Positions 11,601-50,826 of a stretch of 55,990 nucleotides of DNA are shown piece by piece. The stretch is from a virus (Duplodnaviria > Caudoviricetes), in IMG/VR virus record IMGVR_UViG_3300030329_003406, positions 1 to 55,990 of that record; one strand, 5' to 3'. The notes below the pieces were generated by a model. It searched no databases, was not told the origin of the DNA, and saw only the letters and a list, made by a program, of their open reading frames with translations. Made by a program: the position numbers and the translations under genes. Position 1 is the stretch's first letter. Each line of letters opens with the position of its first letter.

Positions 11601-11616
11601 TAGTTGGTAAAGGCAT
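2626..11616 (-). CDS. Giant (2996 aa) virion protein containing a putative single-subunit double-psi beta-barrel RNA polymerase
   Basis: Motifs in correct order: VDGGIPISKEYAKYLW (~aa1690), GKGFLYYDP...VPESAAK (~aa1733) and HQRDYDGDHFYVY (D2145-D2149, nt 5170-5184). They resemble QDE-1/RdRP, YonO and crAss-type RNAP motifs. Confidence 0.75.
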   Translation of the reverse strand: MPLPTRYFDKLQEDKNRVERDRKRTERRVNPTLPNLPTFDQVMDSASKDENWGSAWDFISQTGLGLASGISWGATEYLEPDMEEGQERSRLGQAGRIIGETAGLFAPIVGPFAAMGKAGSLVTRKVATEGVESIIKRGAASAGKAVSNVKGKKESIAVVKAAAEIAKNTGKKTSSVLSELDNKVKLGLIKTGTDDGSLKWIYNLKGNADQRREGLQMLTLRSQHAIKKAFEDVGIKNIGADDLSRISDDFMEHMGSGKHINELSEWVATKFAGESAGPLRDVLGKYLGMASQDVMMMGAHGLISGAVMAHARGEEFGLAEAGHVANHSLLMGLAFPIIRAFPGGGNESLARKVRLLKATYGKSNYAKITEEAGEDATKGLLKIMLKGGKFDILNSSELAKRHWKVGKTTYKNAEDIIRKMDKGEVPMDHVHSLLNSVRDLTARKLNKEWYGKYAYDFMASSGRMAAGVAVMNYGLFSTGAFNDLNPEELGIHLLMSAAMTKSRGHWGRQELNQYMADFTPEMETLHLLGLSGNGLKDIIPMYNANDVSAKFGSSINTHPVGAEIHRLFNEAFNMKSFTGTSKDYDPMKAHRLIAELNDINKMMETSMQDPGIQGSYTPRDARFLGKEGLTWLESQLKGLKFEDGTSLKDLHAGGVQSRLTQDTAAGVWRVYRDMILQFRDSAGLKVEELNNGRLRIDDFTWDNASNLSDVHNIVKFFADRGYIETGASTRKYKFNADTEKVVEEIIESTKGVLNREHGVGNYNFDILNNPYTQLVKAGKTSEALDKMFKIMTRRTSEEIGSVADEAIGISADQLFIVNDNGSRYRRNINDYEIKFTDKELETMGANEVRDRADSVRDSLSPLFELMKWTAGAPSRNIQGKTEISYKDAKLLAEQFDKFRLQMPVEFRANFDGVAKDYFIKRVMETRNYDRRSLNTVLEIRDKWNLEITKEGKIKMFSEEGLERMLGPETSEGDRLKAGEMYTNIIRAIGREHIEFSDYIIENTAADAFRKFDLSDIASIHSTLKDRSFQDFVNFGKESLANIQFEGSKLNKRLFQLQLDIGRLAEDIGKSGYDHEAAIKTIKDEVEILSTRNKDSEKSEMRDKNQELFDTALTQLEIIEKRMKRIPDEGIEQFKADETIPSVNEVINKLITNTQLSEDAFIGIVNQLINKTRAGKEGYSRSESEDYYNTLTKELMKELKNLGDKEVPFEDLVNAYNESGSWTKFMDLAESINLRIAQARAEKDPHAAEFNNIYNELEVQSVVHSSSKNPLEVAKRYNLLSLKDPNKVDETFADLVAQGKLNEAVDHGVTKILEIKDLSNKEKTELFDQWVDKDSQFMLLRLTNSEVVPTMTFRKGNTEVGDATGRKNANSDFFNRKHQPDADQFKYDVFFLDNTLVVTEGGRDRTLSINDIVGGPSGVTPEGVYKYIQNAINNSTMTPRALREFVNERLAAGEPVTAKDIKMWNDVTTAATNYLTFMNLSPKARILFVGSQKNIDLLNKDYEAWYNKKLSYYNKKNKSLGDVFKEMFEGVLEKGDSSRSLELKMLLMHSDHTMRGEFDKMVNQVKDNAANIDVRKTLANMYKRGYIADGGTSNIINKDMNRYIGDITADADVRALSRRFAKDPNSLNIAALRDEAMGGVDDPFYNKERVIRAIDNKLKDPNISEFEKISLNQHRADVERGRFDSLESSSVDGGIPISKEYAKYLWEANGGRIEDFNGMKPYIMSVGAGNNLLGKGFLYYDPAINIPKNVHMLVPESAAKSMAGISLSGKDIQALKISKNSSDWMAELGSISKDNIMSIDFSSVGIGFTGKKVDGVTISNSTGDLQSSAYIAELRAWQGLESTIEKLSNFHRDHSGAKQQIAEYLFQLKEDQGFQYTQGSMGLAKAMVQSRMSIDNPVLKTAVDRLIRSKDFEFIKRPTTKNGEDAFIIPNSKGDLSMPNIVEVQSAKLYKDKPLNERGSEIITDRINATHGQIGVSHYMMNRTKHRDISKYSFVYNDSGIDVIINYDGKNFRTTSPLHDKYAGYNVRGDDTGAVIPKADKSKLATISKVLKSINSIRNLTALQVHNFIKNGVLTKNGQTYVLSKLSGVKKVELDKLNLEMGASGIAIPLKGYDKAFHRIGKVLNENKNGLVEINDYDTRIIHQRDYDGDHFYVYLDKSLRAISEDVQVNGRVVDFRQYKAEMKTGHESNQYGFNLNENRFVAGEVDGEIGHSKYGAIVHQKQKAIGANIGNRSALSFLTRLGFHNTKDKTEIFDLNNIKNLEVGGDEFGIALRMLYAAQTGVDVHTATPEVMNPKHGRNTITNFSVLGDRPSRAVAGEIADPTTHNASRLNVFKKGWNPDKNEGQKNLQHWTDQTVGKDIVRIVLRTLKKTNAITNETYDTAGKRPPEPSELRAIVKDLRLFLSNPDQFLVSKLVREYSRITDSALREQRLSELMGFFYGYKVDAITHPTQRADFIKMLRSGKAWRLPQTRRRFAFRDDISKEPSITQKLKIGAAEHLGANSLVDMVNRKFYTDFQYADYTNSDGKLFRNAGIAVDDIVNRVEFLRLFGENIADGDFNYGSLVKFERDVYNDNAVNRGLVHNILEVENNNLANQLRYLAEERFTNPEKITRMRDRKDAISSALDSFNKQYYENLVAKDTKNQRVRRPVTFSPEQKAAGVFSKTTKPSSKVYVYKVRSDFFNAADRTIDWKKIERVGWVDPKSYKSSDRSYQRDEGYYYIETKNPSIRESVNTAEAKYADALQKLTFPVGDAQAVFRDYSLRLEFLDSVGILKGELSTNYRDTMSLTQKDRNMANLQWSASSAREEAIIREFFHGTKDGKRRGWLERLSELGLGEQDAYEFLLHHIVKPTALTGRYKTVTMPGEGKRPERIDLPFYGMNKRLVRTMLRYYYNTKGTDKIADKFAKEWQRVADGGDINVDDFISGHQMMYTNKYNFNKLGENMSFIKNLLGPGFHSPWIEVQANRYGLEHWKTSTMKGGTGKDKYKIRQPKKSRKVCE

Positions 11617-15997: not shown

Positions 15998-18265
15998 TTA
16001 TGGTGTAGCAAATGCTAGAGATGCAACTCCATAGCATTGTTCTTCAGTAGAATCCCAATAAAAAGTAACTATATCTATACCGTTATTAGTAAACGCAGGT
16101 ACACTTCCACCTGCCCACATAACATCTGTAGTAGTTGCAGCTGATTCGTCAGACTCATATACTTTCCAATTAGAAACATCATGATCACCATTAGTTGTGC
16201 ATACTAAAGTAAAATTACCTGATGCATTTGGGAATATTAAATTCATATTAATTATATCGCCTGTCATTTCAAGTCTATATTTATTGCTAAATCTAAAATC
16301 TATATCTGTATCATCTGTTCCACCTGATCCTATAACTGTTGTTGCGCTAAATGTTGCTTCTTTTCTAGTAAAACCAACAGCTCCAGCCCTAAAAAGAGAA
16401 AGCTGCCCATCAGATCCATTCTCATTGAACCTAAACATGCAAACTCCACCAACAAAGAATGATAACTCATCTGCATTAGTTTCTACAATATATGTATCTC
16501 CAAACGTATCAAAATTTAACTTAGCTCCAGTAGCTATAGAACAATCAACAATGTCATTAGTATCTGTACCTTGAAGAGAGAATCCAGTTTGTATTCCATC
16601 TCCAGTACCACCACTATCTTTAGTAAGTACTCCAAGGTACATTTTACCAGCACCAGTACCATCTGTCTCATCTCCAATTTGAACTTTTATATTTCCATAT
16701 TCATTACTCTCTGGATTAGGACTTGCATCATTCTTTCCATAGAATCTAATTTGACCTACAGTATCATTAACTGCAGGACTATCTGAATTATGCATGAATG
16801 CAAGCCATCCTGCTTCAGTACCATTATCATTTGTTTCTACTACTAAATTAGGTCTTGATGCGCTACCTGTTGTAGATAAAGTCAGCTGCCCACCAGCTGG
16901 AGTTATAGTTAGATTGCCTGGGGCTGTTATTGCGTCCCCATCTATATCCAAATCACCTGCTATAGTAGTTACTGACGCTGTACCAGCTCCAATCCATGCA
17001 TTAACCTCATCATTAGTATTACTTCCTGCTAATATAAATCCAGTAGTCAATACTGGCGCTGAAGAATTTTCAGTGATAACTTTCATTTTAAGCAAACCTG
17101 ATTCTGTATCACTAGTTACATCACCTATAAGCACTTCCATTTCAGCATAAGTAGTTGTGTTATTATCTGAATCTCTACCTATAAAATGCAATCTACCTAA
17201 CTTATCATTCATTGCTTCAGAACTATCAATAGGTATATGTATAAATTCTAATATAGGGCCACCAGAACCATTATGGGTACTATATATACTTACCTTAGGG
17301 TCAGCCGTATCATTAACACCAGCTATAGTAAGAGTGTTTAAATTAAGAAATGACGCATCATTACCACCTGGATTAATAGTTAAATCTCCTGTTGGATTAA
17401 TAGTTAAGTTACCTGCTGCTGTTATTTCAGTTCCATCTATATCTAAATTCCCAGCTACAGTTGTAGTGGATGTAGTCCCAGACCCTATATTTGCATTAAC
17501 TACATCGTCAGTAGTACTGCCTGCTAATGCTAATCCTGTTATTAAACCTGACCCTCCACCGCTAGCTGAATTAGTCATGACTTGCCAATAAAAATGACCT
17601 CTCTCATCACCATCAGTTACATCAAGAGCTTGGCACATCAAGCGACCATATTGCGTTCTATCGCCATTATCATTATATCCAAAATAATCTAAAGCACCTA
17701 AAATATCATTATCTTGGCTGTTATCAGTACCATTCCTATGAGCCTCAAATTGAAGTGTTGGGCATCCTGCTGCACTGTTATGTTGGCCTATAAGTATTAA
17801 GTCTGGGTCAAGAGCGCCAGCAGCAGAACTCTCTATTGTAAACTGTCCTCCTTTAACATCTACAGTTAAATCTCCTGCAACATCAAAGTTAACATTACCA
17901 CTACCAGCAGCATATAATTTTGATTGAGCTTCTCCCTTTTGAGCTACACCTGTATTAACCTTACCAAATACAATAGCTCCACCCATATTAAGGTTACCAG
18001 TTCTAGAGTTTATTGTAGTCCCAGAAGCCATATTATGCACCTGTAAGCTCTCATCTCCATCTCTACCACCTAATATCCCAAGAGACTGTTCTCCGACGAT
18101 ATACCATCGATTTCTATGTTTTGCGAATAATTTTAAACCACTCTTTGTAGATCTTAATGCTAACTCTCCATCAGATCCTTCATTATTCCTAGGAGGGCCT
18201 GAGCCTATACGAACTCTAAAAGCCTTCTGATGTTCAAGTCTTCTAGTGGTTCTATTAGATGCCAT
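15998..18265 (-). CDS. Tail fibre/spike protein with three internal repeats
   Basis: Repeats ILGALDYFGYND / KLGRLHFIGRDS / TVGQIRFYGKND, and AGNLDIDG..ITA.GNLTI.P twice. Confidence 0.65.
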   Translation of the reverse strand: MASNRTTRRLEHQKAFRVRIGSGPPRNNEGSDGELALRSTKSGLKLFAKHRNRWYIVGEQSLGILGGRDGDESLQVHNMASGTTINSRTGNLNMGGAIVFGKVNTGVAQKGEAQSKLYAAGSGNVNFDVAGDLTVDVKGGQFTIESSAAGALDPDLILIGQHNSAAGCPTLQFEAHRNGTDNSQDNDILGALDYFGYNDNGDRTQYGRLMCQALDVTDGDERGHFYWQVMTNSASGGGSGLITGLALAGSTTDDVVNANIGSGTTSTTTVAGNLDIDGTEITAAGNLTINPTGDLTINPGGNDASFLNLNTLTIAGVNDTADPKVSIYSTHNGSGGPILEFIHIPIDSSEAMNDKLGRLHFIGRDSDNNTTTYAEMEVLIGDVTSDTESGLLKMKVITENSSAPVLTTGFILAGSNTNDEVNAWIGAGTASVTTIAGDLDIDGDAITAPGNLTITPAGGQLTLSTTGSASRPNLVVETNDNGTEAGWLAFMHNSDSPAVNDTVGQIRFYGKNDASPNPESNEYGNIKVQIGDETDGTGAGKMYLGVLTKDSGGTGDGIQTGFSLQGTDTNDIVDCSIATGAKLNFDTFGDTYIVETNADELSFFVGGVCMFRFNENGSDGQLSLFRAGAVGFTRKEATFSATTVIGSGGTDDTDIDFRFSNKYRLEMTGDIINMNLIFPNASGNFTLVCTTNGDHDVSNWKVYESDESAATTTDVMWAGGSVPAFTNNGIDIVTFYWDSTEEQCYGVASLAFATP

Positions 18266-21200
18266 TAAACTGCCCTATATACTATAGATATATCATTGAT
18301 TTCAAAAAATTCAGCAGTTTCACATTCAAATTCTATCATAAGAGAAAATTGTTTTACTGGAGCCCCAGAACCAGAGAAAGTAATTTCTTTAGTAGTCCAT
18401 GAATTAGAAGGAGAAAGAGTCCCTAAATCTGTAAATCCTAAACCACTATTATATGAGGATTTCACATTCACTAGAGATGATGATTTATAAGTTACTATAA
18501 CACCATATAATGCTTTCTTAGAATTAGGAGAACCAAAATCTATATCTCTAGTTCTTACATTAATAGGAGCAGAAATTCTATGAGAATACCCATTGTCAAA
18601 ATCTCTTACTCCTAAATTTAAAACAACCCAACCAGCTGCAGCTAAAGGTACACTAGTAGCAGAAGGAGCATTGCCTATAATTCTTATAGAAGAAAATGTT
18701 ACAGTTACATTACTAAATGATTCGTTAGTACCACAAGCACCTCCCTCTTTAACTATAGCATGAGTAATTCCAGTTGACCCAGCAGCTCCGCCCCAAGGAT
18801 CAGTTGTTGCGCTGGCAATACCTATAGAAGTAAAACCTGCATCACTATCTGCTCCATACTCACTTATAGTTTTAACTCGAAATATATTATCACCAGTATT
18901 GGCTCCGCCAAAATCATCACCAGTATCATCAAATGTAAATAAATCACCTACTTTTATATAGCCTGCATTTGGTCCAGTTGGAGAGTAATCACCAGCAACC
19001 TTTAATGTTAAACCACTATCATCAACTTTAATAGTCCCTGGTCCAATAGTATTTTTAGCTTCAGATGCCCATGCCCCGCCAGCAGCTCTCGCTTCTTGAA
19101 TCAAGGGAAGCAATGAATTAGTTACATTCATATCATTATCATCTGAACTAGTTGTATATGGTCCAATTCTATTATCATCGTCATCATTATCTTTAATTAT
19201 AACAGAGAAATTACTGCCTCCTGATAAATTTCCAGTTCTTCTTGGATGTAATAACCATTCTCCAGGACTAGCTGCAGAACCAGGAACATGTATACTATTT
19301 ACAGGTCCACTGCCAACAGTAAAGGTTACAGTATTATGCTCTCCATAAGTAACATAAGTATCCCAATTAGATACTATGTCACTTTGCTGTGAACTTTGTT
19401 CAAACGTTAACCTTGTAATATAAGCATTATCTCCCCAATTTTCTGCTGGAGCTTCAGGTATCTCATACAGTGCGCCTGCTGCAAATCCCGATGCAATAGT
19501 ATCAAAAGGCATATATTCAACAGATTCATCTAAAAAGAATGCGTCACCATTCATAGTGCCTTGACTGCAACCGCTTAAAGTATAAAGAGCTCCTGGAACA
19601 AATAAGTCAGCTTTTCTTCCTAACATAGTTATAATCATTTTATCTCCAGTCACCCTAAAAACTAATCCTGGAACTGTCCAGATACAACTTGTAGGAGTAA
19701 CACTAGTAATAGCATCTGGAATCAATGAATCCCAATGACCTGTTGATCCGAAAGATAATGCAGTACCTGACCCATTAATACCGTCAACATTAATACTAGA
19801 AATATCTTGAAGCATATTCTTTGGAATATATGTATTTATTCCCCATGAAGGTGTATGAGATGAATTCCATCCAAACATAGCATTATCAGCTCTACCATAC
19901 CCTAGTTGAAAATAAGCTTTCTGGAAGTGAAATAAAGTGCCAGCGTTTTCAAGTCCATATCCAGTATCATTGGTACCAATATTAGATAGCCCATCAATAC
20001 TTTCAACTCCATCCCAAAAATCTACATGGCTTAATGCAGTATCTAAAACAAGCTGTGAGTTACTTCCTGGAAGACCAGCAAAGTTACCACCAGCAGCCTT
20101 AGTTACTTTAATCTGAATTGCATTAGGATTTATAAATATAGTATCTCCATTAGAATGATACTGTTGTGGCTCTATGCCATATAATCCACTAGACACACTA
20201 TTAATAGCACTACCAATAGGAGCAAAGACATTATATAAATCAAGATGACAATGATAAAATAATACCATCTGCGGATAGTTACTATAGTCAGAACCTGTCA
20301 CCTCACTAGTCGATGCCAAGTGAAGAGCATAAGTGTCAGCAACGTTATCTGGCAACTCAGGAGGACTTACCTCGTATACTAAGGCATTTTCAAAATGGCT
20401 TGCTGCAACAGTATCTTTAGTTATTTCGCCTTTTGCTACAACTATAGTAGCCCCGCTAGGAGTATTTGTAAAAACTATATTATTACCATTAAACGTATCT
20501 GAGCTTTCAATTTCCCAAGAAGGCCTAACAAGAGTAAAATCATCTGGGTTGCCTTGATCTACCAAAAAGGATCCAGAACCATATGTATTAATAAAATCCG
20601 TAGCATTTATATATGACTGTATCTGAAATGCTAATTCCTCTCTAAATGTGCGATCATTTTCTGCAGTAGCACTATAGCTAAATGTATTAGTTATATTTAC
20701 TCCATTAATAGTAAGATAGGTATTACTGGCATTCATATTTTGATTGGTATTTGTTATAGTCCAATGTGCATTAACCCCTGCATATGCTGGCACTATATTG
20801 TCAGATAATATAACCTCACTATTATTTGTGCTATGACTTAAGAACATACAAGTATTATCATAATTTGCAACTATATTAGATTTAGGGAGCCCACTTACAC
20901 GCCCTTCCCCTCTAGTCCATGATTGGGTCATAATATCATAAATCATAACATCACCAGTATTCTCATAAAGATCATCACTAAGGATAGCTGATGCAGGGTC
21001 TTGCATAATAACTATCTGTTTTAATTCTTGTATATATCCTACCATACCATTAGACCCAATAAACTCACTCCATCCTAAAGATATTGCTGTAGATGATTCT
21101 GTTGGATTTAATTTGCCTAATATTAAATTATTTATTTTCTCTCCATCATACAAATAGCAACCATTCTTATTTACCCACACAGGTCCAAATTCAGTTGTAC

Positions 21201-22797
21201 ATACTTGATAATCATGATTTACACCCATAAACCTATGTTCAGACTCTAACCTCTCATAGTCTTCAGATATATTTATAATATATAGATTTTCATTTTTGAA
21301 TTGAAGTAATCTATCTGAGAAGGAAACTAATGCTGTTATTTTTTCTCCATCATTAATAGCAACATCTATAAAGTTAGATTTAGGGAATATATCAAACGCA
21401 TTAACTGGAGAAACCAACATTCTATCATGCTCGGTATCAATCGCTCTAGTCCTGCATTGCTTCTTGCAATTCCCAGTAGTATAAAAATCACCATCATCGG
21501 TGACATTAGAATCTGTAAGGAACTTAACTCTTTTAACCCCACCTATATAGGTACGTCTATTAACAACTACAGCTGATGCATATCTGGCCGCCGTAGACTC
21601 TTCTCCATGCGTAATACCAGTCCTGAGTTCATATGTCAAAGCAGGCAATTTAGGTATTACCAATGCATTAGTATTCTTCACCGCATTATTCTGACCGCCA
21701 ATAACATCATCCGCAGTAAATGCCGTTTGCTTATCGCCTGCATGAGATTCAAAATAAGGCTTATCATCATCGCTAGTACCAAAATGCATATATGCCATAA
21801 ACAAAGGATCATCAAATACTCCTAGAGAATCTCCCATCCAATAAATATTGACACCTTTTAGTCTTGGGTCAAAAGGAATACTACTAGCATCTTCAGATGC
21901 ATCATCAAATCCTACACCTACTTGGAGCTTTATAGATCCATCTGCTGCACCACCACCGCTAGTAGTATCTAATACACAAGCTGTACCATTAGCTTTTAAA
22001 AATTGAGTAATAGGAGATTCCTGATCATCATCATAGACAAAAGAAGCTCCAAATTGAAGAGAACTATCTTGCTCCCATTCTCCAGCTGTACTATCGTAAT
22101 CAGCATACAAGAAAACGCTTCCAGTTCCCAACTTGCCATAAGCAGCAGTATCACCATGGGCAGTATTCTCTACAGCAAAATCATCTCTATTAACTAATTG
22201 ACCATTATTATTGTCAGCCCCAGAAGCAGATGGTGGAAATATATAAGAGTCTAAATCATACCAATCTGCTGGAACTACATAACCTAAGCCAGCGGTAGCA
22301 TTTGGAAAGCTAGAAACTCCATAAAACCATGTTTTATCTATAAATTGATATCTTCTAGGATAAACGGATTTAACATTGCTAAGGCTTAAGTCAGAAACCC
22401 TTAACCTTCCATCAACATAATAAAATACAGGTCGTATATTACTAACATCAGCAGCAGTACTAATACGAATTTCATCAGTATGCATAGATCCATCATATAT
22501 TGTAATACCAGTACCATTTTGTATAGCAAGTAATTTAGTCTCCTTGGCTTCGTTAGATATATTATGATCTGCATTAAATGCAAATAATCCATATCCAGGA
22601 GAAAAGAATCCCTCGATTTCACCACCACTATTTATTATAGCATGAGTCTTAGAGCCACCCATATTGCGTATCTTACCTTGAACATCAACCATTACTCCAT
22701 TCGCATCTGATAATGCATTTTCTGGGAGGTCTCTAGGGTCATACTGATTTACTAAGCCACCTTCAAACTTATTTATTAGTAGTACTGATTTTGGCAC
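18265..22797 (-). CDS. Tail hub/stabilisation (tail tubular B-like) protein, 1510 aa
   Basis: N-terminal INKFEGGLVNQYDPRDLP, propeller-like DGEKITALVSFSDRLLQFK and C-terminal TRDIDFGSPNSKK are typical of podoviral tail hub proteins. GTG start. Confidence 0.65.
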   Translation of the reverse strand: MPKSVLLINKFEGGLVNQYDPRDLPENALSDANGVMVDVQGKIRNMGGSKTHAIINSGGEIEGFFSPGYGLFAFNADHNISNEAKETKLLAIQNGTGITIYDGSMHTDEIRISTAADVSNIRPVFYYVDGRLRVSDLSLSNVKSVYPRRYQFIDKTWFYGVSSFPNATAGLGYVVPADWYDLDSYIFPPSASGADNNNGQLVNRDDFAVENTAHGDTAAYGKLGTGSVFLYADYDSTAGEWEQDSSLQFGASFVYDDDQESPITQFLKANGTACVLDTTSGGGAADGSIKLQVGVGFDDASEDASSIPFDPRLKGVNIYWMGDSLGVFDDPLFMAYMHFGTSDDDKPYFESHAGDKQTAFTADDVIGGQNNAVKNTNALVIPKLPALTYELRTGITHGEESTAARYASAVVVNRRTYIGGVKRVKFLTDSNVTDDGDFYTTGNCKKQCRTRAIDTEHDRMLVSPVNAFDIFPKSNFIDVAINDGEKITALVSFSDRLLQFKNENLYIINISEDYERLESEHRFMGVNHDYQVCTTEFGPVWVNKNGCYLYDGEKINNLILGKLNPTESSTAISLGWSEFIGSNGMVGYIQELKQIVIMQDPASAILSDDLYENTGDVMIYDIMTQSWTRGEGRVSGLPKSNIVANYDNTCMFLSHSTNNSEVILSDNIVPAYAGVNAHWTITNTNQNMNASNTYLTINGVNITNTFSYSATAENDRTFREELAFQIQSYINATDFINTYGSGSFLVDQGNPDDFTLVRPSWEIESSDTFNGNNIVFTNTPSGATIVVAKGEITKDTVAASHFENALVYEVSPPELPDNVADTYALHLASTSEVTGSDYSNYPQMVLFYHCHLDLYNVFAPIGSAINSVSSGLYGIEPQQYHSNGDTIFINPNAIQIKVTKAAGGNFAGLPGSNSQLVLDTALSHVDFWDGVESIDGLSNIGTNDTGYGLENAGTLFHFQKAYFQLGYGRADNAMFGWNSSHTPSWGINTYIPKNMLQDISSINVDGINGSGTALSFGSTGHWDSLIPDAITSVTPTSCIWTVPGLVFRVTGDKMIITMLGRKADLFVPGALYTLSGCSQGTMNGDAFFLDESVEYMPFDTIASGFAAGALYEIPEAPAENWGDNAYITRLTFEQSSQQSDIVSNWDTYVTYGEHNTVTFTVGSGPVNSIHVPGSAASPGEWLLHPRRTGNLSGGSNFSVIIKDNDDDDNRIGPYTTSSDDNDMNVTNSLLPLIQEARAAGGAWASEAKNTIGPGTIKVDDSGLTLKVAGDYSPTGPNAGYIKVGDLFTFDDTGDDFGGANTGDNIFRVKTISEYGADSDAGFTSIGIASATTDPWGGAAGSTGITHAIVKEGGACGTNESFSNVTVTFSSIRIIGNAPSATSVPLAAAGWVVLNLGVRDFDNGYSHRISAPINVRTRDIDFGSPNSKKALYGVIVTYKSSSLVNVKSSYNSGLGFTDLGTLSPSNSWTTKEITFSGSGAPVKQFSLMIEFECETAEFFEINDISIVYRAV

Positions 22798-42899: not shown

Positions 42900-43142
42900 G
42901 AATTATTTTCATGCTATAACTACCTGAAAAATAAGCACTTATGATTTTAAGAGGTCCCCCTTTTTAATCGCGATTGCAAATCCAAAACGTTAACTTTCAA
43001 AAATTATAGAATTTCTATGTGTGGTGTTTCAATACACCCCTACCCCCTTGAAAAGGGTTTTTCCCAAATGGGATTTAGTTATTTTTGATTTCATATTAAA
43101 TGTGGTTTTTAGTCGTTAATTAATTAAAGAAAGGGAAGTAAC

Positions 43143-43415
43143 ATGTTATTATATGAGGAACCAACAACAGATGCTGAGGCAGCTATAGTATTAGATGACC
43201 TATGCTCAGAGGCTGAAGTTATTATGTATCCAGCTACTAGAGGTGATAGACGTGGCCTTAATCAAAAGAGACGTAAGGTTAATGCATTGCTTGATAGACT
43301 TATTGCATCATGCTTTCGTAAAGGTTGGAAAGATGTAGCAGATAAAGCTGTATCTACTAGGGATAAGATGATACAAATGAAGGAAGCTGTGCAAGAACTC
43401 AACAGTATATTTTAA
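43143..43415 (+). CDS. First early gene, hypothetical
   Basis: ORF with an AGGGA RBS, followed by a terminator. Confidence 0.65.
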   Translation: MLLYEEPTTDAEAAIVLDDLCSEAEVIMYPATRGDRRGLNQKRRKVNALLDRLIASCFRKGWKDVADKAVSTRDKMIQMKEAVQELNSIF

Positions 43416-44196: not shown

Positions 44197-44440
44197 CGTG
44201 ATGGCTGTAACCACCGATACTATCATGGAATAATCCTTACAGGGATATAACAAGTGATTGGAAGATAAATAACTAACAGACCTTGACGAAGGCGGCTCCT
44301 GAGTAAGAGTTAGTAAAAGGCTCAATAATTTCAAACTTGGTTAGTACGACCCTAATGCGCAATGATGTCAACTTTCATGAGAGTTCTGACTATAATCATT
44401 TGATGAGATATTAAGCTATCTCTAGGGCAGAAAGCCTCTA
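44197..44440 (+). ncRNA. Putative structured non-coding RNA, unknown family
   Basis: Six or more consecutive stems, several with G-U pairs, in a non-coding gap. Confidence 0.45.
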
Positions 44441-44441
44441 A

Positions 44442-44508
44442 GGGGATATTGACAGGCGAGATAACCAAGGGTACACTTCAAGTACATGACTAACGAGGGT
44501 CAAGCCCC
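44442..44508 (+). ncRNA. Repeated structured RNA motif, copy 1
   Basis: GGGGATATTGACAGGCGAGATAAC...ATGACTAACGAGGGTCAAGCCCC. Confidence 0.6.
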
Positions 44509-44535
44509 AAAGAATTAAATAAAAGGGAGAACAAT

Positions 44536-44727
44536 ATGAATGAAGACGATAAGATACATGTTATACAAGTAAAACTAACTAGAAAGTTTAGGAAGAGGCT
44601 GCAAGAAGATGCTGAGAAACATTTTAGGAGTGTTGGTATGCATGTTAAAGCTATAATAACTAAGTATTTTAATGATAAGTCATTACCTAGTAATAATTAT
44701 GATGCTAGGGACATGGAAAACTTATAA
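44536..44727 (+). CDS. Ribbon-helix-helix (Arc-like) DNA-binding protein
   Basis: VIQVKLTRKFRKRLQEDAEKHFRSVGMHVKAII pattern. Confidence 0.65.
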   Translation: MNEDDKIHVIQVKLTRKFRKRLQEDAEKHFRSVGMHVKAIITKYFNDKSLPSNNYDARDMENL

Positions 44728-44742
44728 ACAAAGGGAGATAAC

Positions 44743-45171
44743 ATGGAAAGAGGATTTTGGATAGTAATAACAGTAGTATTATCAATGCCAATATGGTTAT
44801 TGATGTATGATGAACTAGTACCAGATGTAATAAATGAGACAAATACTGTGTATGTTGAGCCTGATGTAGATTGTGCTGAATGTATTGAGGTATGTCATGG
44901 TGGTACTTATGAGGAAGTGGCAGTAATTAATACTGTGCAAGATATTACTCCTACAATGAGTGATAAAGAACGTATGAAGACAGATCATCCAGTGTTATGG
45001 AATGATATGAGTCCTAAATACTTTAATGATACTAGTGATGGAGCATTTAATGATGCATTTAAGGCAGCTAGAGCTGAGCTTGGTCCTGGTAATACCTTCA
45101 CTTGGAATTATAAAGAGTATAATACGTATTACAAAGAAGAACTAGAAGTAACAAATCAATCGATCGACTAA
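44743..45171 (+). CDS. Membrane-anchored protein with CxxCxxxC and FxxAFxxARxxLGxGxxFxW motifs
   Basis: N-terminal TM helix; C-terminal AFNDAFKAARAELGPGNTFTW. Confidence 0.65.
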   Translation: MERGFWIVITVVLSMPIWLLMYDELVPDVINETNTVYVEPDVDCAECIEVCHGGTYEEVAVINTVQDITPTMSDKERMKTDHPVLWNDMSPKYFNDTSDGAFNDAFKAARAELGPGNTFTWNYKEYNTYYKEELEVTNQSID

Positions 45172-45185
45172 TACTTCTAACATTG

Positions 45186-45278
45186 GGGGGATATTGAAAG
45201 GCGAGTAACAGTTCTATGAGCAAGATTAAATTACGGGTTTAATGCGCCGTAAACTATGCTAACGAGGGTCAAGCCCCC
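45186..45278 (+). ncRNA. Repeated structured RNA motif, copy 2
   Basis: GGGGGATATTGAAAGGCGAGTAAC...ATGCTAACGAGGGTCAAGCCCCC. Confidence 0.6.
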
Positions 45279-45302
45279 TGATCAAACTAAAGGGAGATAA
45301 CA

Positions 45303-45980
45303 ATGGCATATAGTTTAGAATATCAAAGAGAATGGCAAAGGAATAACAAAGATAAGATGAAAAAATACAAAGATAAATATAGATCATCTGAGAAAGGAAA
45401 GACTACAACTAAAGCTTATACAAAGAAATATACAGAAAGCGGAAGAAGAGCCAAGATGCAAGCTATAAGAATGGCTAATCCTGATTATAGAGCTAAGGCA
45501 AGTAAATGGCATAAAGAAAACTCTAAAAGACCTGAAGTAATAAAAAGAAGAAGAGAATTACATTATATATGGTCAAAGAATAATCCTAATTATATGATGA
45601 AGAGAAGAATTAAAGCTTGTTTTAAAAATGCTATAAATATTTATACTGAAAAAGGCAAAACTTTATCTTCAAGAGATTATGGGCTAGATTACTCTAAATG
45701 TATTGATAAATTAACCAAAGATGCTAAAGAAATGGGTTGCACTCTTAAAGAGATAAAAGACATGGATTATCATATAGATCATATAATACCTATGTCTATC
45801 TATGATTTAGAAGATAGAAATGAGATTAAAAAATGTTGCAATCCAGCAAATATGAGATGGCTTAATTCTATTGAAAACATAGTTAAAGGTAACAATTTAA
45901 GACCTGAAGATATAAAGGTTATAGAAACTCTTCCAAAGAGTATATATCCTAAACAATGGGGCGGAATAATACCAAGTTAA
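45303..45980 (+). CDS. HNH (homing-type) endonuclease
   Basis: YHIDHIIP...NPANMRWL..IENIVKGN; basic helical N-terminus. Confidence 0.8.
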   Translation: MAYSLEYQREWQRNNKDKMKKYKDKYRSSEKGKTTTKAYTKKYTESGRRAKMQAIRMANPDYRAKASKWHKENSKRPEVIKRRRELHYIWSKNNPNYMMKRRIKACFKNAINIYTEKGKTLSSRDYGLDYSKCIDKLTKDAKEMGCTLKEIKDMDYHIDHIIPMSIYDLEDRNEIKKCCNPANMRWLNSIENIVKGNNLRPEDIKVIETLPKSIYPKQWGGIIPS

Positions 45981-46028
45981 ACTAATAGGGAGATAAAAAT
46001 GATTTAAATATAATAAGATACTAACAAA

Positions 46029-46256
46029 CTTCCCTAGCATACGGAAGGGCAACGCTTAAGATGTGCACAGGCTGCGTCATATAGTATGCTAAGAATTAGA
46101 GAGAGTTACGGCTAAAACCACCATCTCGTTAAATAAGTCGATGAAGCATGATAGTGATGGCCGCAGGTGTCATTAATGTTCATAGCGGGTGAGCAGCTAA
46201 ACACTGCATACGCAAGCGTGGTCTCTCTCTGAAATTATGCTGAGATTAATATCTCA
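46029..46256 (+). ncRNA. Putative structured ncRNA(s): a three-way junction plus a large multibranch element
   Basis: TAGCATAC/GTATGCTA; AGAGAGAGTTACG/CGTGGTCTCTCTCT enclosing three helices; TGAGAT/ATCTCA. Confidence 0.5.
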
Positions 46257-46332
46257 CTAGTAATAAATATGAAGTTATTGGAGAAAACAACAAATAAATA
46301 TAATAAAACACAACAAAACAGGGAGATAATAG

Positions 46333-46503
46333 ATGCAACTAGATGAAACAATATTGCAGACCAGGACTGTCACTACTATAGTTGATATCCTGAAGAAGAT
46401 CGTGGATGATATGAACCCACTGATCAGAGAGACACAAGATGTCTATGAAATTATCAAAGAACATGATAAAGCTAAAGCAAAGGTAAAATTTCAATATGAG
46501 TGA
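46333..46503 (+). CDS. Small hypothetical protein (56 aa)
   Basis: GGGAGATAA RBS; MQLDETILQTRTV... Confidence 0.6.
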   Translation: MQLDETILQTRTVTTIVDILKKIVDDMNPLIRETQDVYEIIKEHDKAKAKVKFQYE

Positions 46504-46741
46504 TGCGGCTTATGTCGTGTTCATCTCCCTAAAGGAGGAGGGGAAGGTAGTCGACCATCCCCTTTGTCCTTGCTCAACGGAGATAGAGGCGAGAGCATAC
46601 CGTGACGGTTACGTGGATGCTATAGTCAATCATACAGGAAAAGCCAACCGAGCCGAAGTATATGGACAGTTTAGTATACGAAAAGTTGGTGAAGAATTAG
46701 CTAATAATAACAAAAAAGAAGAAGGGAGTAAGAATGCCTGA
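46496..46741 (+). CDS. Hypothetical protein coupled to the Ubl gene
   Basis: Overlaps both neighbours by 8 nt. Confidence 0.6.
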   Translation: MSDAAYVVFISLKEEGKVVDHPLCPCSTEIEARAYRDGYVDAIVNHTGKANRAEVYGQFSIRKVGEELANNNKKEEGSKNA

Positions 46742-46937
46742 CATAAAAATACTAGAAGGTGGCGGCTTTGTAGACCATAGTGTAACATCAACAACAGTAG
46801 GTGGATTAAGAACTGAGAAGAGTATACCTCAGGGCTCATCTATATCTGTTGGTGGTAGAACTGTAGGTGATGATCATGCTTTAACAGATGGTGATCTAGT
46901 AGCTGCAGTACATAATGATAAAACTGGTGGAAAATAG
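46734..46937 (+). CDS. Ubiquitin-like (ThiS/MoaD beta-grasp) protein with C-terminal GG-K
   Basis: TTVGGLR, ISVGG and LTDGDLV MoaD-like motifs; ends DKTGGK; GGGAG RBS; near E2, JAB and E1 genes. Confidence 0.8.
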   Translation: MPDIKILEGGGFVDHSVTSTTVGGLRTEKSIPQGSSISVGGRTVGDDHALTDGDLVAAVHNDKTGGK

Positions 46938-46965
46938 AATGGCTAACCACGCAAGGTGAATTCTA

Positions 46966-47058
46966 GAGGGACTAATTGATTATTTGGGGGATGCTGAATG
47001 AGAAGGCAGTATCAGATTAGGCTTTTACGTGACTAAAGCTATAATTAATTAGTTCCTC
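46966..47058 (+). ncRNA. Three-way-junction RNA element with an 18-bp closing stem
   Basis: GAGGGACTAATTGATTAT/ATAATTAATTAGTTCCTC; inner GATGCTG/CAGTATC and GGCTTT/AAAGCT. Confidence 0.55.
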
Positions 47059-47082
47059 CCATCATAAACATAAGGAGATAAT

Positions 47083-47328
47083 ATGGCAAGATTAACAAAT
47101 TTAGATGCATTAAAGAGTGATCTCAATGCTTTAGTAGTAAAGATATTGACTTTAGGTAAAGCGGAAGAGAATGCAGGGAAATATGAGTATTATAAAGAGA
47201 AATTAAACATTGCAAGCGCATTAGAAGATATAATAAAGAAACATTTTAATAATACGGTATTCGGTGAAATGACTAATGAAGAAGCTAGAGATATAGCTGT
47301 TAATGGCTATAAACATAAAAAATGTTAG
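47083..47328 (+). CDS. Hypothetical helical protein
   Basis: AGGAGATAA RBS. Confidence 0.65.
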   Translation: MARLTNLDALKSDLNALVVKILTLGKAEENAGKYEYYKEKLNIASALEDIIKKHFNNTVFGEMTNEEARDIAVNGYKHKKC

Positions 47329-47510
47329 TGCCAGATAAAAATGGATATTTATGTCCAGAATGTGGAGAAGATTATCTTGAAGAAGGTGAAGCTGGTAATC
47401 TAGGCACAGGCCCTGATGGTATTCCTATAATGTGGTGTCCAACCTGTGAACTTATGTTAGATGAGCATGATTTTATGGATTATTATGAACCAGGGAGGGA
47501 TGATGAGTGA
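47322..47510 (+). CDS. Acidic zinc-ribbon protein
   Basis: CPEC...CPTC. Confidence 0.65.
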   Translation: MLVPDKNGYLCPECGEDYLEEGEAGNLGTGPDGIPIMWCPTCELMLDEHDFMDYYEPGRDDE

Positions 47511-47736
47511 ATATGTATCAGTATTAGATGGACATAACTTAAGATTTTGTAAAAAATGTAGTTCAGTATGGGAAGGACCATGGAAGAGGTTATATGGCCT
47601 AACTATCATAAAATACAGCAACTTAAGTTCATATAAGTTAAAAAGAGAACGTTGTTTAGAATGTGAAAGGGAGATAAATGGAACAAAAACTAACGCATGT
47701 ATCGGAGGCAAGAGATTGGTCACCAAATATTACTAA
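47503..47736 (+). CDS. Basic zinc-finger protein (start revised)
   Basis: CKKC...CLEC; GGAGG RBS before ATG 47500/47503. Confidence 0.6.
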   Translation: MSEYVSVLDGHNLRFCKKCSSVWEGPWKRLYGLTIIKYSNLSSYKLKRERCLECEREINGTKTNACIGGKRLVTKYY

Positions 47737-49108
47737 TCTAAATGAGCAGTTGTTATTAGGGCCTCAAAGAGAAATACTGGAATTAATTCAAGAAATTAAT
47801 AGAAGGTGGACTTTAGACCTAAATGCAACTAAAACATATAGATGGGGACCAGGATATATGGATAAAATAAAGAGATGGTATCGTGATCACTATGTTGAAG
47901 AGCATATGAAGAGAAAAATATCAACATTCTTTAATAAAGTAGCCGAAAAACACTGGTCAGTTAAGGAATTAGAGAAGAAATTAAGAGTTGTTGATGAGAA
48001 AATGGCCTCTAGACGTAGAAATGGTGCAGTTTTCCAAGATAATAGTGGTTTATTGGAAGAAAAACTAGAAATATTATCAAATAGAGTGGAATCTCAGTTG
48101 AGTGAAGCTAATAAACAGTTTAATTCTTCAGGAATACATATAAATGCAAGTTTATATCGCTATCAAAATACTAATAGGTATGATGCTGCAATTAAAGATG
48201 AATATGTAATACAGGTTTCTCTTCCACCAGGTAAAATGAACTTATTTGTGGGAGATACACCATATCAAATAGAGATAGGAGGCTCAATAATATGGTTTAG
48301 GCTTGACTTAATGAAACTTATATATACAATTTGCAATGAAAACTCAAGAATAGTTAATGATAATACATTTAAACTTAATTATACACCTTATGCTGAAACA
48401 GGTAGTAAGATTATAGCTCATTATTTTCCTGAATGGGAAGAAAATAGTGAAGGTAAAGAGTTGAAACATCCATATATAAGCGGTAGAAATGCATGGAATC
48501 AATTGAGAATTAATGATGAACTTATTGGATCACATGTATGTTTAGGTGAATTAACTGGTCATGTAGATAGACAAATGAAGAAATTAGACTTAGTTTCTCT
48601 ATGTGCAACACTAATGTTATGGAATTCTACGTTCCATATAGGTAGAACGCACCCATTAAACCAAATAAAGAAGGTATTTTGGGGTATTTCACCTGAAAAT
48701 AACACAGATGAGTTCAAAAATGCTGTAAATATGGTGAGTGCTGGTGATTGTGAGCATAATAATTGGGACGATCGATCTAATATAGACACCATGTATTGCG
48801 ATGAAACACAATGTGTATTTAGAGATAGTTGTACTACTTATAGAGTAGGCATGGATGTAGATCAAGAAGAACCTCAAGAAGAGCCTAGTGTTGGTGGCGT
48901 AATAGAGGTATTGCAGGCTATGGAAGAAGATTCTAGGGAAATTAATGCTCAAAGAACAGAAATAGAAGAAAGAATGAGACAAGAGAACCCTAATGGTCAA
49001 ATCGATGTAGATGAAGTGGCTAGATGGATTGAATTAGAAACACCTGAAGAACGGGTAATAAGATGGGCTGCCGAAAACGGTGGTGCAATTAACATAGGAG
49101 AAAGATAA
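47678..49108 (+). CDS. Prokaryotic E2 (ubiquitin-conjugating)-like protein with N-terminal coiled coil and Cys-rich C-terminal segment
   Basis: KHPYISG (H264)...HVCLG (C288) matches the E2 HPx...CLG pattern; translationally coupled to JAB. Confidence 0.65.
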   Translation: MEQKLTHVSEARDWSPNITNLNEQLLLGPQREILELIQEINRRWTLDLNATKTYRWGPGYMDKIKRWYRDHYVEEHMKRKISTFFNKVAEKHWSVKELEKKLRVVDEKMASRRRNGAVFQDNSGLLEEKLEILSNRVESQLSEANKQFNSSGIHINASLYRYQNTNRYDAAIKDEYVIQVSLPPGKMNLFVGDTPYQIEIGGSIIWFRLDLMKLIYTICNENSRIVNDNTFKLNYTPYAETGSKIIAHYFPEWEENSEGKELKHPYISGRNAWNQLRINDELIGSHVCLGELTGHVDRQMKKLDLVSLCATLMLWNSTFHIGRTHPLNQIKKVFWGISPENNTDEFKNAVNMVSAGDCEHNNWDDRSNIDTMYCDETQCVFRDSCTTYRVGMDVDQEEPQEEPSVGGVIEVLQAMEEDSREINAQRTEIEERMRQENPNGQIDVDEVARWIELETPEERVIRWAAENGGAINIGER

Positions 49109-49962
49109 TGGAATCAGAGTTTTATATAGAAGGTAAGGCCTGGGATAAAGTGATAAACTATGCACGATCTGCTTATGGTCAGTTTAAAGCTGAAATAGGT
49201 GGAATGATGGTAGTTGTTAAAGATCAGGATGGTGATTGGGAGTTAAAAGATCCAGTGATCATGAAACAAGAAGTGACTGCAGGTAATACTCATTTAGATA
49301 AAGATGAACTTGCTAAATATTATACTAAAGCAGCGATGAAATATGCCAAAGAAGAATTTAGATTCTGTTGGTGGCATTCTCATCATACAATGGGAGCTTT
49401 CTGGAGTGGTACTGACACTAATACTATAGATGAGTTTAGTGATGGAGACTTTAGCTTTGCTTTAGTAGTTAATCTTAAGGAAGAATATAAGTTTAGAGTA
49501 TCTGTATGGAAACCTATAGAGGCACATGAAGATGTTGAGCTTAATATACTTACTAAAGAAAAGAAAGTTCCAAAGAAAATAGAAGATGAGGTAAAAGAAA
49601 TGTGTCAAGCTGGAAATACAGCATGGAGGCATAAGTCCCTTAATAACAATTACTTACGTCCACAAGAAACACTATTTAATTTACCTTATGAACAAAATGA
49701 AGTGCCGTATGCACAGGTATATAAACTAATAGATAGACTACATAGAAATCTTATAGCTGGTGAAGTTACTTATGGTGATTACTATAGAAAGATACAAGAT
49801 GAAAATGAACGTCTAAAGACAGAAAATCTTGGCATGCGAATAAAGGTACTTAAAGAAGAAGAGTTAGCTAATGAATTATTATTCTCTACTCCTACAGATT
49901 TCATAGAAGAAGAAATAATAGATGATGAGTTAACCGATTGGAATAGGGGCTTCTTATGTTAA
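49108..49962 (+). CDS. JAB/MPN+ (JAMM) metallopeptidase
   Basis: E29 (KAEIGG) and WWHSHHTMGAFWSGTD (H90, H92, S100, D103). Confidence 0.88.
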   Translation: MESEFYIEGKAWDKVINYARSAYGQFKAEIGGMMVVVKDQDGDWELKDPVIMKQEVTAGNTHLDKDELAKYYTKAAMKYAKEEFRFCWWHSHHTMGAFWSGTDTNTIDEFSDGDFSFALVVNLKEEYKFRVSVWKPIEAHEDVELNILTKEKKVPKKIEDEVKEMCQAGNTAWRHKSLNNNYLRPQETLFNLPYEQNEVPYAQVYKLIDRLHRNLIAGEVTYGDYYRKIQDENERLKTENLGMRIKVLKEEELANELLFSTPTDFIEEEIIDDELTDWNRGFLC

Positions 49963-50624
49963 ATGCAAGGTATTCTGGAATAGTAGATAATGCTAACCAG
50001 TTTGTCTTTCATATCTTGGGCTGTGGAGCTATTGGTAGTTCTGCAGCCACCCAGATATGCAGGATGGGCGGTGAGAAGTTCTATCTATATGATTATGATC
50101 AAGTAGAGAGCGTTAATATAGGCGTGTCTCAATACAATCATGATGATATAGGTAAAAATAAAGTAGATGCTTTAAAAGAACATCTATTAAGTATCAATCC
50201 TAATATAAAAGTAGAGGTAGAACATGCTTTATTTGAGCATTATTCATACCAAGGTGAGAATGATATAGCTATATTAGGGTTTGATAGTATGAAATCAAGA
50301 TTAGATGCAGTAGAAGCGCTTTGTAGATTCAAGAATGCTAAGCCTAAATATATTATTGACGGTCGTATGGGAGCTGAACATTATCAGCAATATATAATAG
50401 ATAAGCCGACAGTCGCTAAATATACAAAATGTTGGTATTCTGATGAGACAGGAAGCACAGAACCTTGTAATGCAAAAGCTACAAGTTACTGCTCTAATAT
50501 GAGTGGCTCATTTATAGCTAACTCAGTTAGAAAGCTGATCATGAACCAGCCATATAATAGAGAGTTCTCGTTTAACTTCCCAATTATGTTGTTGGAAAAA
50601 ACAAAAATGATTAGTAAATTATAG
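49956..50624 (+). CDS. E1-like ThiF/MoeB adenylating enzyme
   Basis: GCGAIG, DYDQVESVN, GKNKV, GFDSMKSR and IDGRMG; candidate catalytic C171 (EPCNAK). Confidence 0.92.
   Translation: MLNARYSGIVDNANQFVFHILGCGAIGSSAATQICRMGGEKFYLYDYDQVESVNIGVSQYNHDDIGKNKVDALKEHLLSINPNIKVEVEHALFEHYSYQGENDIAILGFDSMKSRLDAVEALCRFKNAKPKYIIDGRMGAEHYQQYIIDKPTVAKYTKCWYSDETGSTEPCNAKATSYCSNMSGSFIANSVRKLIMNQPYNREFSFNFPIMLLEKTKMISKL
50592..50620 (+). promoter_or_regulatory. Sigma70-like promoter of the recombination/replication operon
   Basis: TTGGAA-N17-TAAATT. Confidence 0.5.
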
Positions 50625-50628
50625 GTAC

Positions 50629-50826
50629 AAGAGGTTGATATAAATCAATAACTGATCCTCCTGGAACAACAGTGATATTAAATGTAATCGCGGCTTATAG
50701 GTATGGGCATTCCCTACTAATACATTTAGCGAACCTGAGTGTAGCGCATTTAATATATAAATCTGGCGGCGAAAGGGTAATAAGTCCTGTATGGCAAGGA
50801 AAATGTGAGATTTATTTCTGCCTCTT
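50629..50826 (+). ncRNA. ~200-nt multibranched RNA leader
   Basis: AAGAGGT/GCCTCTT closes TTGAT/ATCAA, ACTG/CAGT, ATATTAAATGT/GCATTTAATAT and ATAAATCT/AGATTTAT. Confidence 0.55.

Follow-up and report, generated by a model that had tools for sequence, protein, structure and literature searches.

The DNA analysed here, referred to as the window, is the complete 55,990-bp viral record IMGVR_UViG_3300030329_003406, which originates from ocean metagenomes. Its minus strand holds the structural genes (1-42832), and its plus strand holds the early and replication operon from about position 43143. In the first kilobases of this operon lie two copies of a non-coding structured element, which we call motif A, at 44442-44508 (+, copy 1) and 45185-45279 (+, copy 2). 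We trained a covariance model, R1, on 19 homologues and searched both strands of the window with filters off. Copy 1 scored 68.1 bits (E 3e-15) and copy 2 scored 52.1 bits (E 4e-11), against 15.6 bits for the runner-up site. The initial annotation, made from the window sequence, had placed two copies here, and both are real; copy 2 is better drawn with one extra G-C pair on each side, as in the coordinates above. The spacing of 12-16 nt that it gave to the ribosome-binding site (RBS) is refined to 16 nt (copy 1) and 13 nt (copy 2) when measured to GGGAG. The parts of the two copies are as follows.

44442-44445 (+): 5' strand of helix P1 of motif A copy 1, GGGG, pairing with CCCC at 44505-44508 in the minimum-energy fold
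44446-44448 (+): AUA bulge of copy 1, facing a single G at 44504
44449-44453 (+): 5' strand of helix P2 of copy 1, UUGAC, pairing with GUCAA at 44499-44503
44454-44460 (+): 5' core of copy 1, AGG-CG-AG, from the folds of 8 homologues and column counts
44461-44489 (+): variable apex of copy 1, one hairpin GUAC-ACUUCAA-GUAC, from sequence and fold
44490-44504 (+): 3' core of copy 1, CU-AA-CG-AGG-GUCAA-G, repeated exactly at 45259-45273
45185-45279 (+): motif A copy 2, with its apex at 45206-45258, from the R1 score and fold

In the 5' core of copy 1, AGG is unpaired, CG pairs with the CG at 44494-44495, and AG starts helix P3 with the CU at 44490-44491. In copy 2, P1 is GGGGGG/CCCCCU and P2 is UUGAA/GUCAA, where A in place of C results in an A.G pair. 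The initial annotation correctly paired GGGG with CCCC and TTGA with TCAA. The purine-rich AGGCG/AACGAGG segment was described as an invariant internal loop; it is invariant, but rather than being loop throughout it most likely holds two C-G pairs, judging from the homologue folds and covariation. The "matched A insertion" assigned to copy 1 is an A.A mismatch within P3, not a compensatory pair.

Two exact occurrences of the 19-nt 3' half, CTAACGAGGGTCAAGCCCC, are present in the window, whereas 100 shuffles gave an expectation of 0.00. The 5' half, GATATTGAMAGGCGAG, also occurs twice; its chance expectation with 3 mismatches allowed is 0.66, and its repetition taken alone is weak evidence. Single-sequence folding energies are unremarkable (z -0.94 for copy 1 and -1.01 for copy 2), and the support for motif A therefore rests on the comparison of homologues and not on thermodynamics. 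A general repeat search did not place the pair among the 20 largest direct-repeat families of the window. A degenerate third copy, suspected by eye near 44283-44330, received no support from R1 with filters off. The DNA contigs of runs X1 and X4 cross both copies with no joints or deletions, giving no sign of an excised or one-copy form.

We collected homologues from ocean viral and metagenome collections into a pooled set of 167 loci with 170 elements, 131 of them distinct. An exact 16-mer of the 3' half was present in 67 IMG/VR stretches, 61 with the 5' half 20-230 nt upstream and 6 by chance, and a metagenome scan added 89 stretches. The folds of 8 homologues share one common rod architecture. 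At the base stands P1 (4-16 bp), separated from P2 (UUGAC:GUCAA) by AUA on the 5' side, which faces one G. Beyond P2 come a symmetric AGG x AGG loop, two C-G pairs, and, on the 3' strand, a bulge of AA; P3, whose first pairs are AG:CU, then leads to the apex. The CG:CG centre with its purine flanks is pseudo-symmetric in these folds. With P2 at 5 bp, CG at 2 bp, and P3 at 4 bp or longer, these helices together with P1 exceed 20 bp in many instances.

Covariation supports this fold. In 56 distinct rows, pairing cells amount to 90.1% against 78.5% in shuffles, and double-change cells number 117 against 40.7; none of 500 shuffles reached either value. When the partner columns were slid as a control, pairing fell to 28-49%. 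Four of the seven P1 pairs and three pairs in P3 covary, while P2 never varies, so that the proposal of a structured RNA with an invariant core is borne out. The A, U, and A of the bulge are each invariant in 56/56 rows, as is the 3' core, the string with which the rows had been retrieved. As rows were found by exact core strings, the P1 and P3 covariation is informative, and the core invariance is informative only where the search left the core free. P2 and both loops stayed invariant in searches whose pattern left them free. Loop-only patterns with P2 left free returned 9 new loci, of which 8 were true, and P2 was UUGAC/GUCAA in all true ones. A scan with the 5' half only returned 15 new loci, 4 of them true, and three of these had single changes in the 3' loop (AACGAUG twice, AACGAGU once); these loop variants, AUG and AGU, were seen once only the 5' half was specified. 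A model search of 80 terminase-related loci found 3 further diverged members, in which UAG-UGAC ... GUCA-AU replaces AUA-UUGAC ... GUCAA-G; this junction variant, UAG/AU, is present in L111, L137, and L149. Altogether, 33 nucleotides of motif A are invariant, and its 16+16 nt core is letter-identical in the phage genomes G001 and G002, whose terminases are 29-40% identical to that of the window.

The strand on which the element folds can be read from its wobble pairs. Internal G.U combinations outnumber A.C combinations 21 to 5 in P1 and P3 of 57 instances (12 instances with an extra hairpin between P1 and P2, and 4 with the variant junction, were left out), indicating that the gene-sense strand is the folding strand. 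The 5' strand of P1 is composed of 255 G, 113 A, 73 U, and 2 C. Two readings of short strings inside the element were rejected. The conserved TTGACA could be read as a promoter, but its -10 element would fall in the variable apex and is not conserved. Against a mini-open reading frame (ORF) that would start at a UUG within the motif, neither its stop position nor its frame is conserved, and the apexes do not come in lengths divisible by three.

As the initial annotation supposed, motif A matches no family in Rfam 15. Searching the whole window on either strand against Rfam 15 (4227 models) gave no match at the gathering score, and relaxing the threshold to E up to 10 for 44300-45400 gave only a 14.9-bit chance snoRNA match outside motif A. 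Rfam searches of the other loci carrying motif A or the sister motifs B and C described below returned nothing relevant. In the literature, core 11-12-mers of motif A appeared only as chance matches (e.g., the Neisseria tuf gene, primers), 16-18-mers of motif B were not found, and word searches gave no description of motif A. A survey of IMG/VR by Fremin et al. (2023; PMC10690425) gave 10,006 predicted structured-RNA candidates, which share with motif A the data source and the type of object, covarying intergenic motifs of uncultivated phages. Sections of its main text name other examples (upstream of GP20 and GP32). As far as searched, motif A is an RNA family without a description, although it may stand unnamed among those candidates.

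Several resemblances to known elements were also considered and rejected. Two scans of 185,579 bacterial and archaeal species genomes (one per species) gave no true match to motif A; the first returned 0 and the second 2 chance matches without the 5' half, which does not support a mimic of a host RNA. A CRISPR repeat mimic or mini-array was sought as the permuted order (3' half then 5' half, within 30 nt), with 0 matches in 241 million metagenome records. The integron attC-like look of CTAAC-GAGG-GTCAAGCC is a superficial likeness without R''/R' pairing, and among the clustered ORFs no recombinase family tracks motif A. ARAGORN finds no tRNA or tRNA-like structure at motif A in 6 long-apex loci and no tRNA in the window. 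In relatives, tRNA genes do occur in the same early region (L024:2830-2904, L112:7101-7173, and L113:7547-7617); the L024 gene, for tRNA-Met, precedes motif A by about 350 nt.

The carriers belong to one broad group of 50-57 kb phages, and related terminases are encoded on at least 597 IMG/VR contigs. We found no near-identical cultured phage for the window, and its terminase is about 25% identical to the best cultured match, so that no annotated relative is of help. Motif A is present in one of the ten complete or nearly complete close relatives (terminase 77-87% identical) and, by hand count, in 3 of the 24 terminase-anchored loci that extend at least 5.5 kb upstream. The element was initially called repeated, which is not typical of it: all five complete motif-bearing relatives have one copy each, and more than one copy is found only in the window and L235/L245 among the 167 loci. 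In these two-copy cases, the copies are about 230-750 nt apart in one operon.

Nearly all instances are intergenic and co-oriented with the flanking genes. In 7/7 complete carriers, motif A lies in the early-gene sense between the terminase-side divergent region and a module of ubiquitin-like (Ubl), JAB, ThiF, Erf, and primase genes, about 1-3 kb into the early operon; G001 and G002 show the same early-operon position. Comparing 7 genomes with the motif and 9 without, no ORF family tracks motif A, the best association being 7/7 versus 3/9, and neither gene-content association nor neighbourhood clustering yielded a partner protein. Two small ORFs lie between the window copies.

44536-45171 (+): two small ORFs of 63 and 142 aa between copies 1 and 2, without a family match

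By tblastn, neither had a protein homologue in L001-L079; part of the 63-aa ORF has 80% nucleotide identity to L182. The 63-aa ORF (44536-44727, +), just 3' of copy 1, reads by eye like a ribbon-helix-helix DNA-binding protein, and it has no Pfam or PHROGs match.

The early-operon position raises the possibility of a processive antiterminator RNA like put of phage HK022, in which the nascent RNA would bind host RNA polymerase and pass the early-operon terminators. Like motif A, put is a structured early-operon RNA with conserved unpaired bases, needs no phage protein, and is present in only some members of its group. One sense-oriented copy per genome near the head of the operon fits this function, the invariant unpaired purines suit a fixed conserved target such as RNA polymerase, and other solutions in relatives would account for the patchiness. 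The architecture differs: put consists of two adjacent stem-loops of about 70 nt in all, whereas the 8 homologues of motif A fold as a single rod P1-P2-P3, and the two-hairpin arrangement of put, to which motif A was initially likened, does not hold. Further, a simple scan predicted no intrinsic terminator on the plus strand of 44509-48000, copy 1 of the window is preceded by four small plus-strand ORFs, and in the two-copy cases the second copy follows within the same operon after the short distance given above. We consider an antiterminator very unlikely.

The sequences following motif A bear on control of translation or transcription. An RBS and start codon lie within 90 nt downstream in 53/73 instances, and 20/73 have no near RBS. 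A TATAAAT box lies within 90 nt downstream in 20/73 instances, and a U-rich tail (at least 6 T in 10) follows 15 of the 54 instances with a P1 of at least 4 bp; neither window copy has either. There is no constant neighbour gene. The commonest downstream gene, in 22/71 instances, encodes an 88-aa ubiquitin-like protein and starts about 59 nt downstream. A 286-aa protein with a radical-SAM-type CxxxCxxC motif is encoded downstream of motif A in 7 instances (L010, L016, L024, L053, and others). A riboswitch, also suggested initially, would bind a small ligand in the loops and control the downstream RBS through its CCUCC-like P1 3' strand. That strand is indeed always pyrimidine-rich and anti-Shine-Dalgarno-like, and most instances precede a nearby RBS. 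However, the downstream genes are of many unrelated families, more than a quarter of instances lack the RBS to be controlled, only 3-5 bp could form with the real Shine-Dalgarno sequence in the cases read by eye, and motifs B and C share the same P1 polarity. A riboswitch is therefore a most improbable explanation.

The apical domain, initially described as variable, is in fact hypervariable. The 131 distinct elements contain 108 distinct apexes in 82 unrelated apex families; loci with 90-98% identical flanks bear unrelated apexes of 7-84 nt, and a single apex is found with several different P1 stems. No shared sub-motif was found among the apexes, GATAAC being present in 6/54 families. In 2.7 Mb searched, apex sequences had 35 matches outside motif A. 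The apexes are drawn from a hairpin pool common to two other motifs, B and C, which are also present in the window.

45211-45251 (+): apex module of copy 2, 97.6% identical over 41 nt to L147:5277-5317 (record G013), where the flanks are unrelated
46096-46233 (+): motif C wrapper, GAGAGAG-UUACGGCUAAAACCACCAUCUCGUUAA ... AAGCGUGGUC-UCUCUC, with variable cargo; not in Rfam, shares cargo with motif A
about 50636-50820 (+): motif B wrapper, CAAUAACUGAUCCU ... GGCAAGGAAAAUGUGAG, between the ThiF and Erf genes; not in Rfam, shares cargo with motif A

The copy 2 apex thus also exists free-standing: the L147 phage lacks motif A, and there a separate 7-bp stem closes the module. Motif B is rod-like, with the order P1 - CAAUAACUGGUCCU - GUAAGUCCUA - cargo - UAGGCAAAGGAAUAUGUGAG - P1'. 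It was found in 25 places among the examined loci and in 7/16 complete genomes, including some without motif A. Motif C has the order P1 - UUACGGCUAAAACCACCAU..CGUUAA - cargo - AAGCGUGGUC - P1' and 14 instances among the examined loci, often directly adjoining motif A. Its outer stem (GAGAGAG/UCUCUC) is of the same style as that of motif A, and the purine-rich polarity of the P1 5' strand is common to all three motifs. Twelve cargo pairs are shared across the classes A, B, and C, all in the same orientation, with 0 minus-strand matches. One cargo hairpin, (G)CCUCAUGGGCAAGUCCC(G/A)UGGAC, is present in seven loci (L036, L060, L067, L050, L055, L046, and L177), occurring inside A, B, and C and in three further places.

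The three motifs are always co-oriented and often stand in tandem or bracket a ubiquitin-like gene; in 8 loci the small Ubl gene has motif A on one side and motif B on the other. Tandems with no gene between them are C-A in L182, L086, L019, and L059, A-B in L008 and L017, and A-C-B' in L085. Motif A belongs to a larger modular set of non-coding elements of abundant ocean phages that likewise lacks a description. Next to motif C in the window, a conserved non-coding hairpin region, CUUCCCUAGCAUACGGAAGGG ... GUAUGCUAAG (46028-46095, +), is about 79% identical to L182:5278-5362, where it lies 3' of motif A. The summed contig depth reaches up to 199.7 in run X1 at 46036-46122, and in X3 and X4 it remains elevated as far as 46200. 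Contig breaks are numerous there, as expected of a module common to many co-occurring phages.

A whole element can also be replaced. Between L149 and L130, the entire motif A including P1 is replaced by another hairpin-rich sequence while the flanks are conserved. The slot that holds motif A in L149 contains in L130 (667-860, -) an unrelated sequence of about 190 nt with a 13-bp closing stem, GUAGUGGAAGUAG / CUAUUUCCACUAC, which has no Rfam match. This replacement is the sole case of its kind, and a precise empty site was not found. Motif A has apparently been exchanged horizontally between phages, as far as the sequence comparisons indicate.

Such mosaicism would also be expected of a selfish or recombinogenic palindrome acting mainly at the DNA level, which would persist by promoting exchange through its halves or by spreading into hairpin centres and for which the RNA fold would be a by-product. 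REP/BIME elements are, like motif A, conserved imperfect palindromes that are clustered, nested, and patchy, and they are co-transcribed, as motif A presumably is. They have hundreds of copies and a dedicated transposase; no such gene tracks motif A, and the bacterial genomes scanned hold no true match to it. The patchy occurrence of a near-identical core in divergent genomes, the nesting of outer stem, core, and cargo hairpin with cargo common to three wrappers, the L149/L130 replacement, and the Erf-type annealing protein encoded by the phages of this group all agree with a palindrome of this REP/MITE-like or PeSL-like kind. PeSL (promoter-early stem-loop) elements of T4-type phages are terminator/promoter composites with many copies per genome (PMC4122927), and the TATAAAT box downstream of some motif A instances recalls them. 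As in PeSL, homology breakpoints coincide with motif A at the apex swaps, which lie inside 90-99% identical flanks, and at the L149/L130 replacement. Motif A differs from PeSL in its elaborate invariant core and in being mostly single-copy. The excess of G.U over A.C and the single orientation of modules and cargo indicate that one strand is under selection. The unpaired loop bases are constant and the stems are not, a pattern that pure homology arms would not call for. No transposase or recombinase tracks the motif, and most genomes have one copy, unlike PeSL or REP. These observations make a mainly DNA-level element quite unlikely.

The modular organisation of A, B, and C could instead reflect three new functional small-RNA classes forming an "RNA cassette" system, a doubtful but conceivable scheme. 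Each cassette would consist of an invariant scaffold, the common purine/pyrimidine outer stem, and an exchangeable hairpin cargo traded by recombination via the scaffold halves. The classes might be self-cleaving ribozymes or protein-titrating anti-defence decoys, and motif A may be considered for each activity separately.

If motif A were a small self-cleaving ribozyme of a new class, its invariant loops together with P2 would make up the active site, P1 and P3 would serve as structural stems of free sequence, with the apex free in length as well, and cleavage would separate the early cistrons. Small ribozymes of phages and metagenomes (hammerhead, twister, pistol, hatchet, and hairpin) share with motif A invariant loop or junction nucleotides and covarying stems; they too have peripheral stems of free length, a patchy distribution, and classes that cluster. 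The invariant internal loops of motif A beside an invariant short helix, its covarying outer stems, its replaceable peripheral hairpin, the lack of a partner protein, and the side-by-side clustering of A, B, and C in patchily distributed phage loci all follow this pattern, and known small ribozyme classes cluster in the same way. In addition, UGAC-AGGC / GAGG-GUCA presumably resembles the loop-A/helix-2 region of the hairpin ribozyme. On the other hand, motif A matches none of the Rfam models of these ribozymes, including at the relaxed threshold of E up to 10. We found neither a conserved second domain nor a partner for a pseudoknot, a rigid 5-bp helix parts the two conserved irregularities, and conserved motifs have a low prior probability of being a new ribozyme class. 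We regard ribozyme activity as unlikely.

An equally unlikely function is that of a trans-acting early small RNA, a decoy or inhibitor that would titrate a host protein, such as an RNA-sensing defence factor or a global RNA-binding regulator, with the core as binding surface. Motif A is accessory, apparently exchanged horizontally, and located among small ORFs without assigned function leading the early operon, the usual site of host-takeover genes. Its core is invariant across distant phages with no phage partner protein found, and it stands in tandem arrays with other structured modules, with tRNA genes nearby in L024, L112, and L113. However, no promoter or terminator of its own is evident, and both window copies run directly into an RBS. 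The absence of matches in the bacterial genomes searched argues against sequence mimicry of a host RNA, and the metagenome records did not show the permuted order that a CRISPR-repeat mimic would have.

We tentatively favour a different function, at somewhat less than even confidence: motif A may be a cis-acting protein-recognition module of the early polycistronic RNA, with a role in processing or stabilising it, whose halves also serve as recombination joints. The element would be transcribed as a non-coding module along with the early genes and would be recognised, in a sequence-specific manner, by a protein not brought with the motif, which would belong to the host or to the phage core set. 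This protein would most plausibly be a double-strand- or structure-specific endoribonuclease or a stabilising binder, cleaving or shielding the early polycistronic RNA where cassettes meet. In the DNA, each of the invariant 16-nt halves may provide a short stretch of homology, by which co-infecting phages would swap apex hairpins and adjacent gene cassettes. The fold and its strand, the conservation, the intergenic early position, the patchy accessory distribution, and the apex exchange are observed in the sequences, and transcription, protein binding, and processing or stabilisation are inferred. In favour of this function we count the sense orientation, the intergenic early position, the helix of more than 20 bp, the apex exchange, the invariance of P2 and the loops in the free-pattern searches, and the lack of a co-inherited protein.

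The RNase III hairpins of phage T7 offer the closest parallel for such a module. They are irregular, about two helical turns long with an internal loop, intercistronic, in the sense orientation, and individually dispensable, all of which applies to motif A, and motif A has the shape of an RNase III site, an intercistronic irregular hairpin of at least about 20 bp in the sense strand. T7 has about ten RNase III processing sites per genome. In contrast, motif A usually occurs once per genome, with 33 invariant nucleotides that include a whole helix, and has a hypervariable apex shared with other motifs.

Several points weigh against the protein-recognition module. An RNase III-type site needs neither 33 invariant nucleotides nor an invariant P2. 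Motif A is accessory, being missing from nine of the ten complete close relatives. The gene-free tandems are odd for cistron-boundary signals and fit independent small RNAs or selfish elements better. Most instances were retrieved via exact core strings, making the core invariance partly a matter of ascertainment, and no RNA sequencing run is listed as holding the window stretch.

Other features of the window surround this early region. The divergent region at the structural/early boundary (42992-43134) is 69-77% conserved in about 20 relatives, with a core at about 42989-43029 that is 92-100% conserved in some, and it contains a near-consensus minus-strand promoter (TTGAAA, an 18-nt spacer, and TATAAT). 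Downstream of motif C, positions 46734-50624 (+) encode a small ubiquitin-like protein ending in Gly-Gly, a 476-aa protein without a family match, a JAB-domain protein, and a ThiF/E1-like protein. This gene set looks like a phage-borne ubiquitin-like conjugation system, and it is retained in most relatives. The structural module includes ORFs of 2996 aa (2626-11616, -) and 1510 aa (18265-22797, -) without a PHROG match.

Among the non-coding RNAs of uncultivated ocean phages, structures have been defined for few and functions for fewer still. The signature of motif A is unusually clean, with its invariant nucleotides, covarying stems, and free apex. As the minimal form is shorter than 60 nt (58 nt in L013:6389-6446), cleavage, nuclease, and binding assays would be inexpensive. 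Even if motif A proves to be an ordinary RNase III-type site, it would be a useful annotation for many marine viral genomes. Together with its sister motifs, it offers an entry to the organisation, processing, or protection of early phage transcripts, to mosaic evolution by intergenic modules, and possibly to a new RNA activity.

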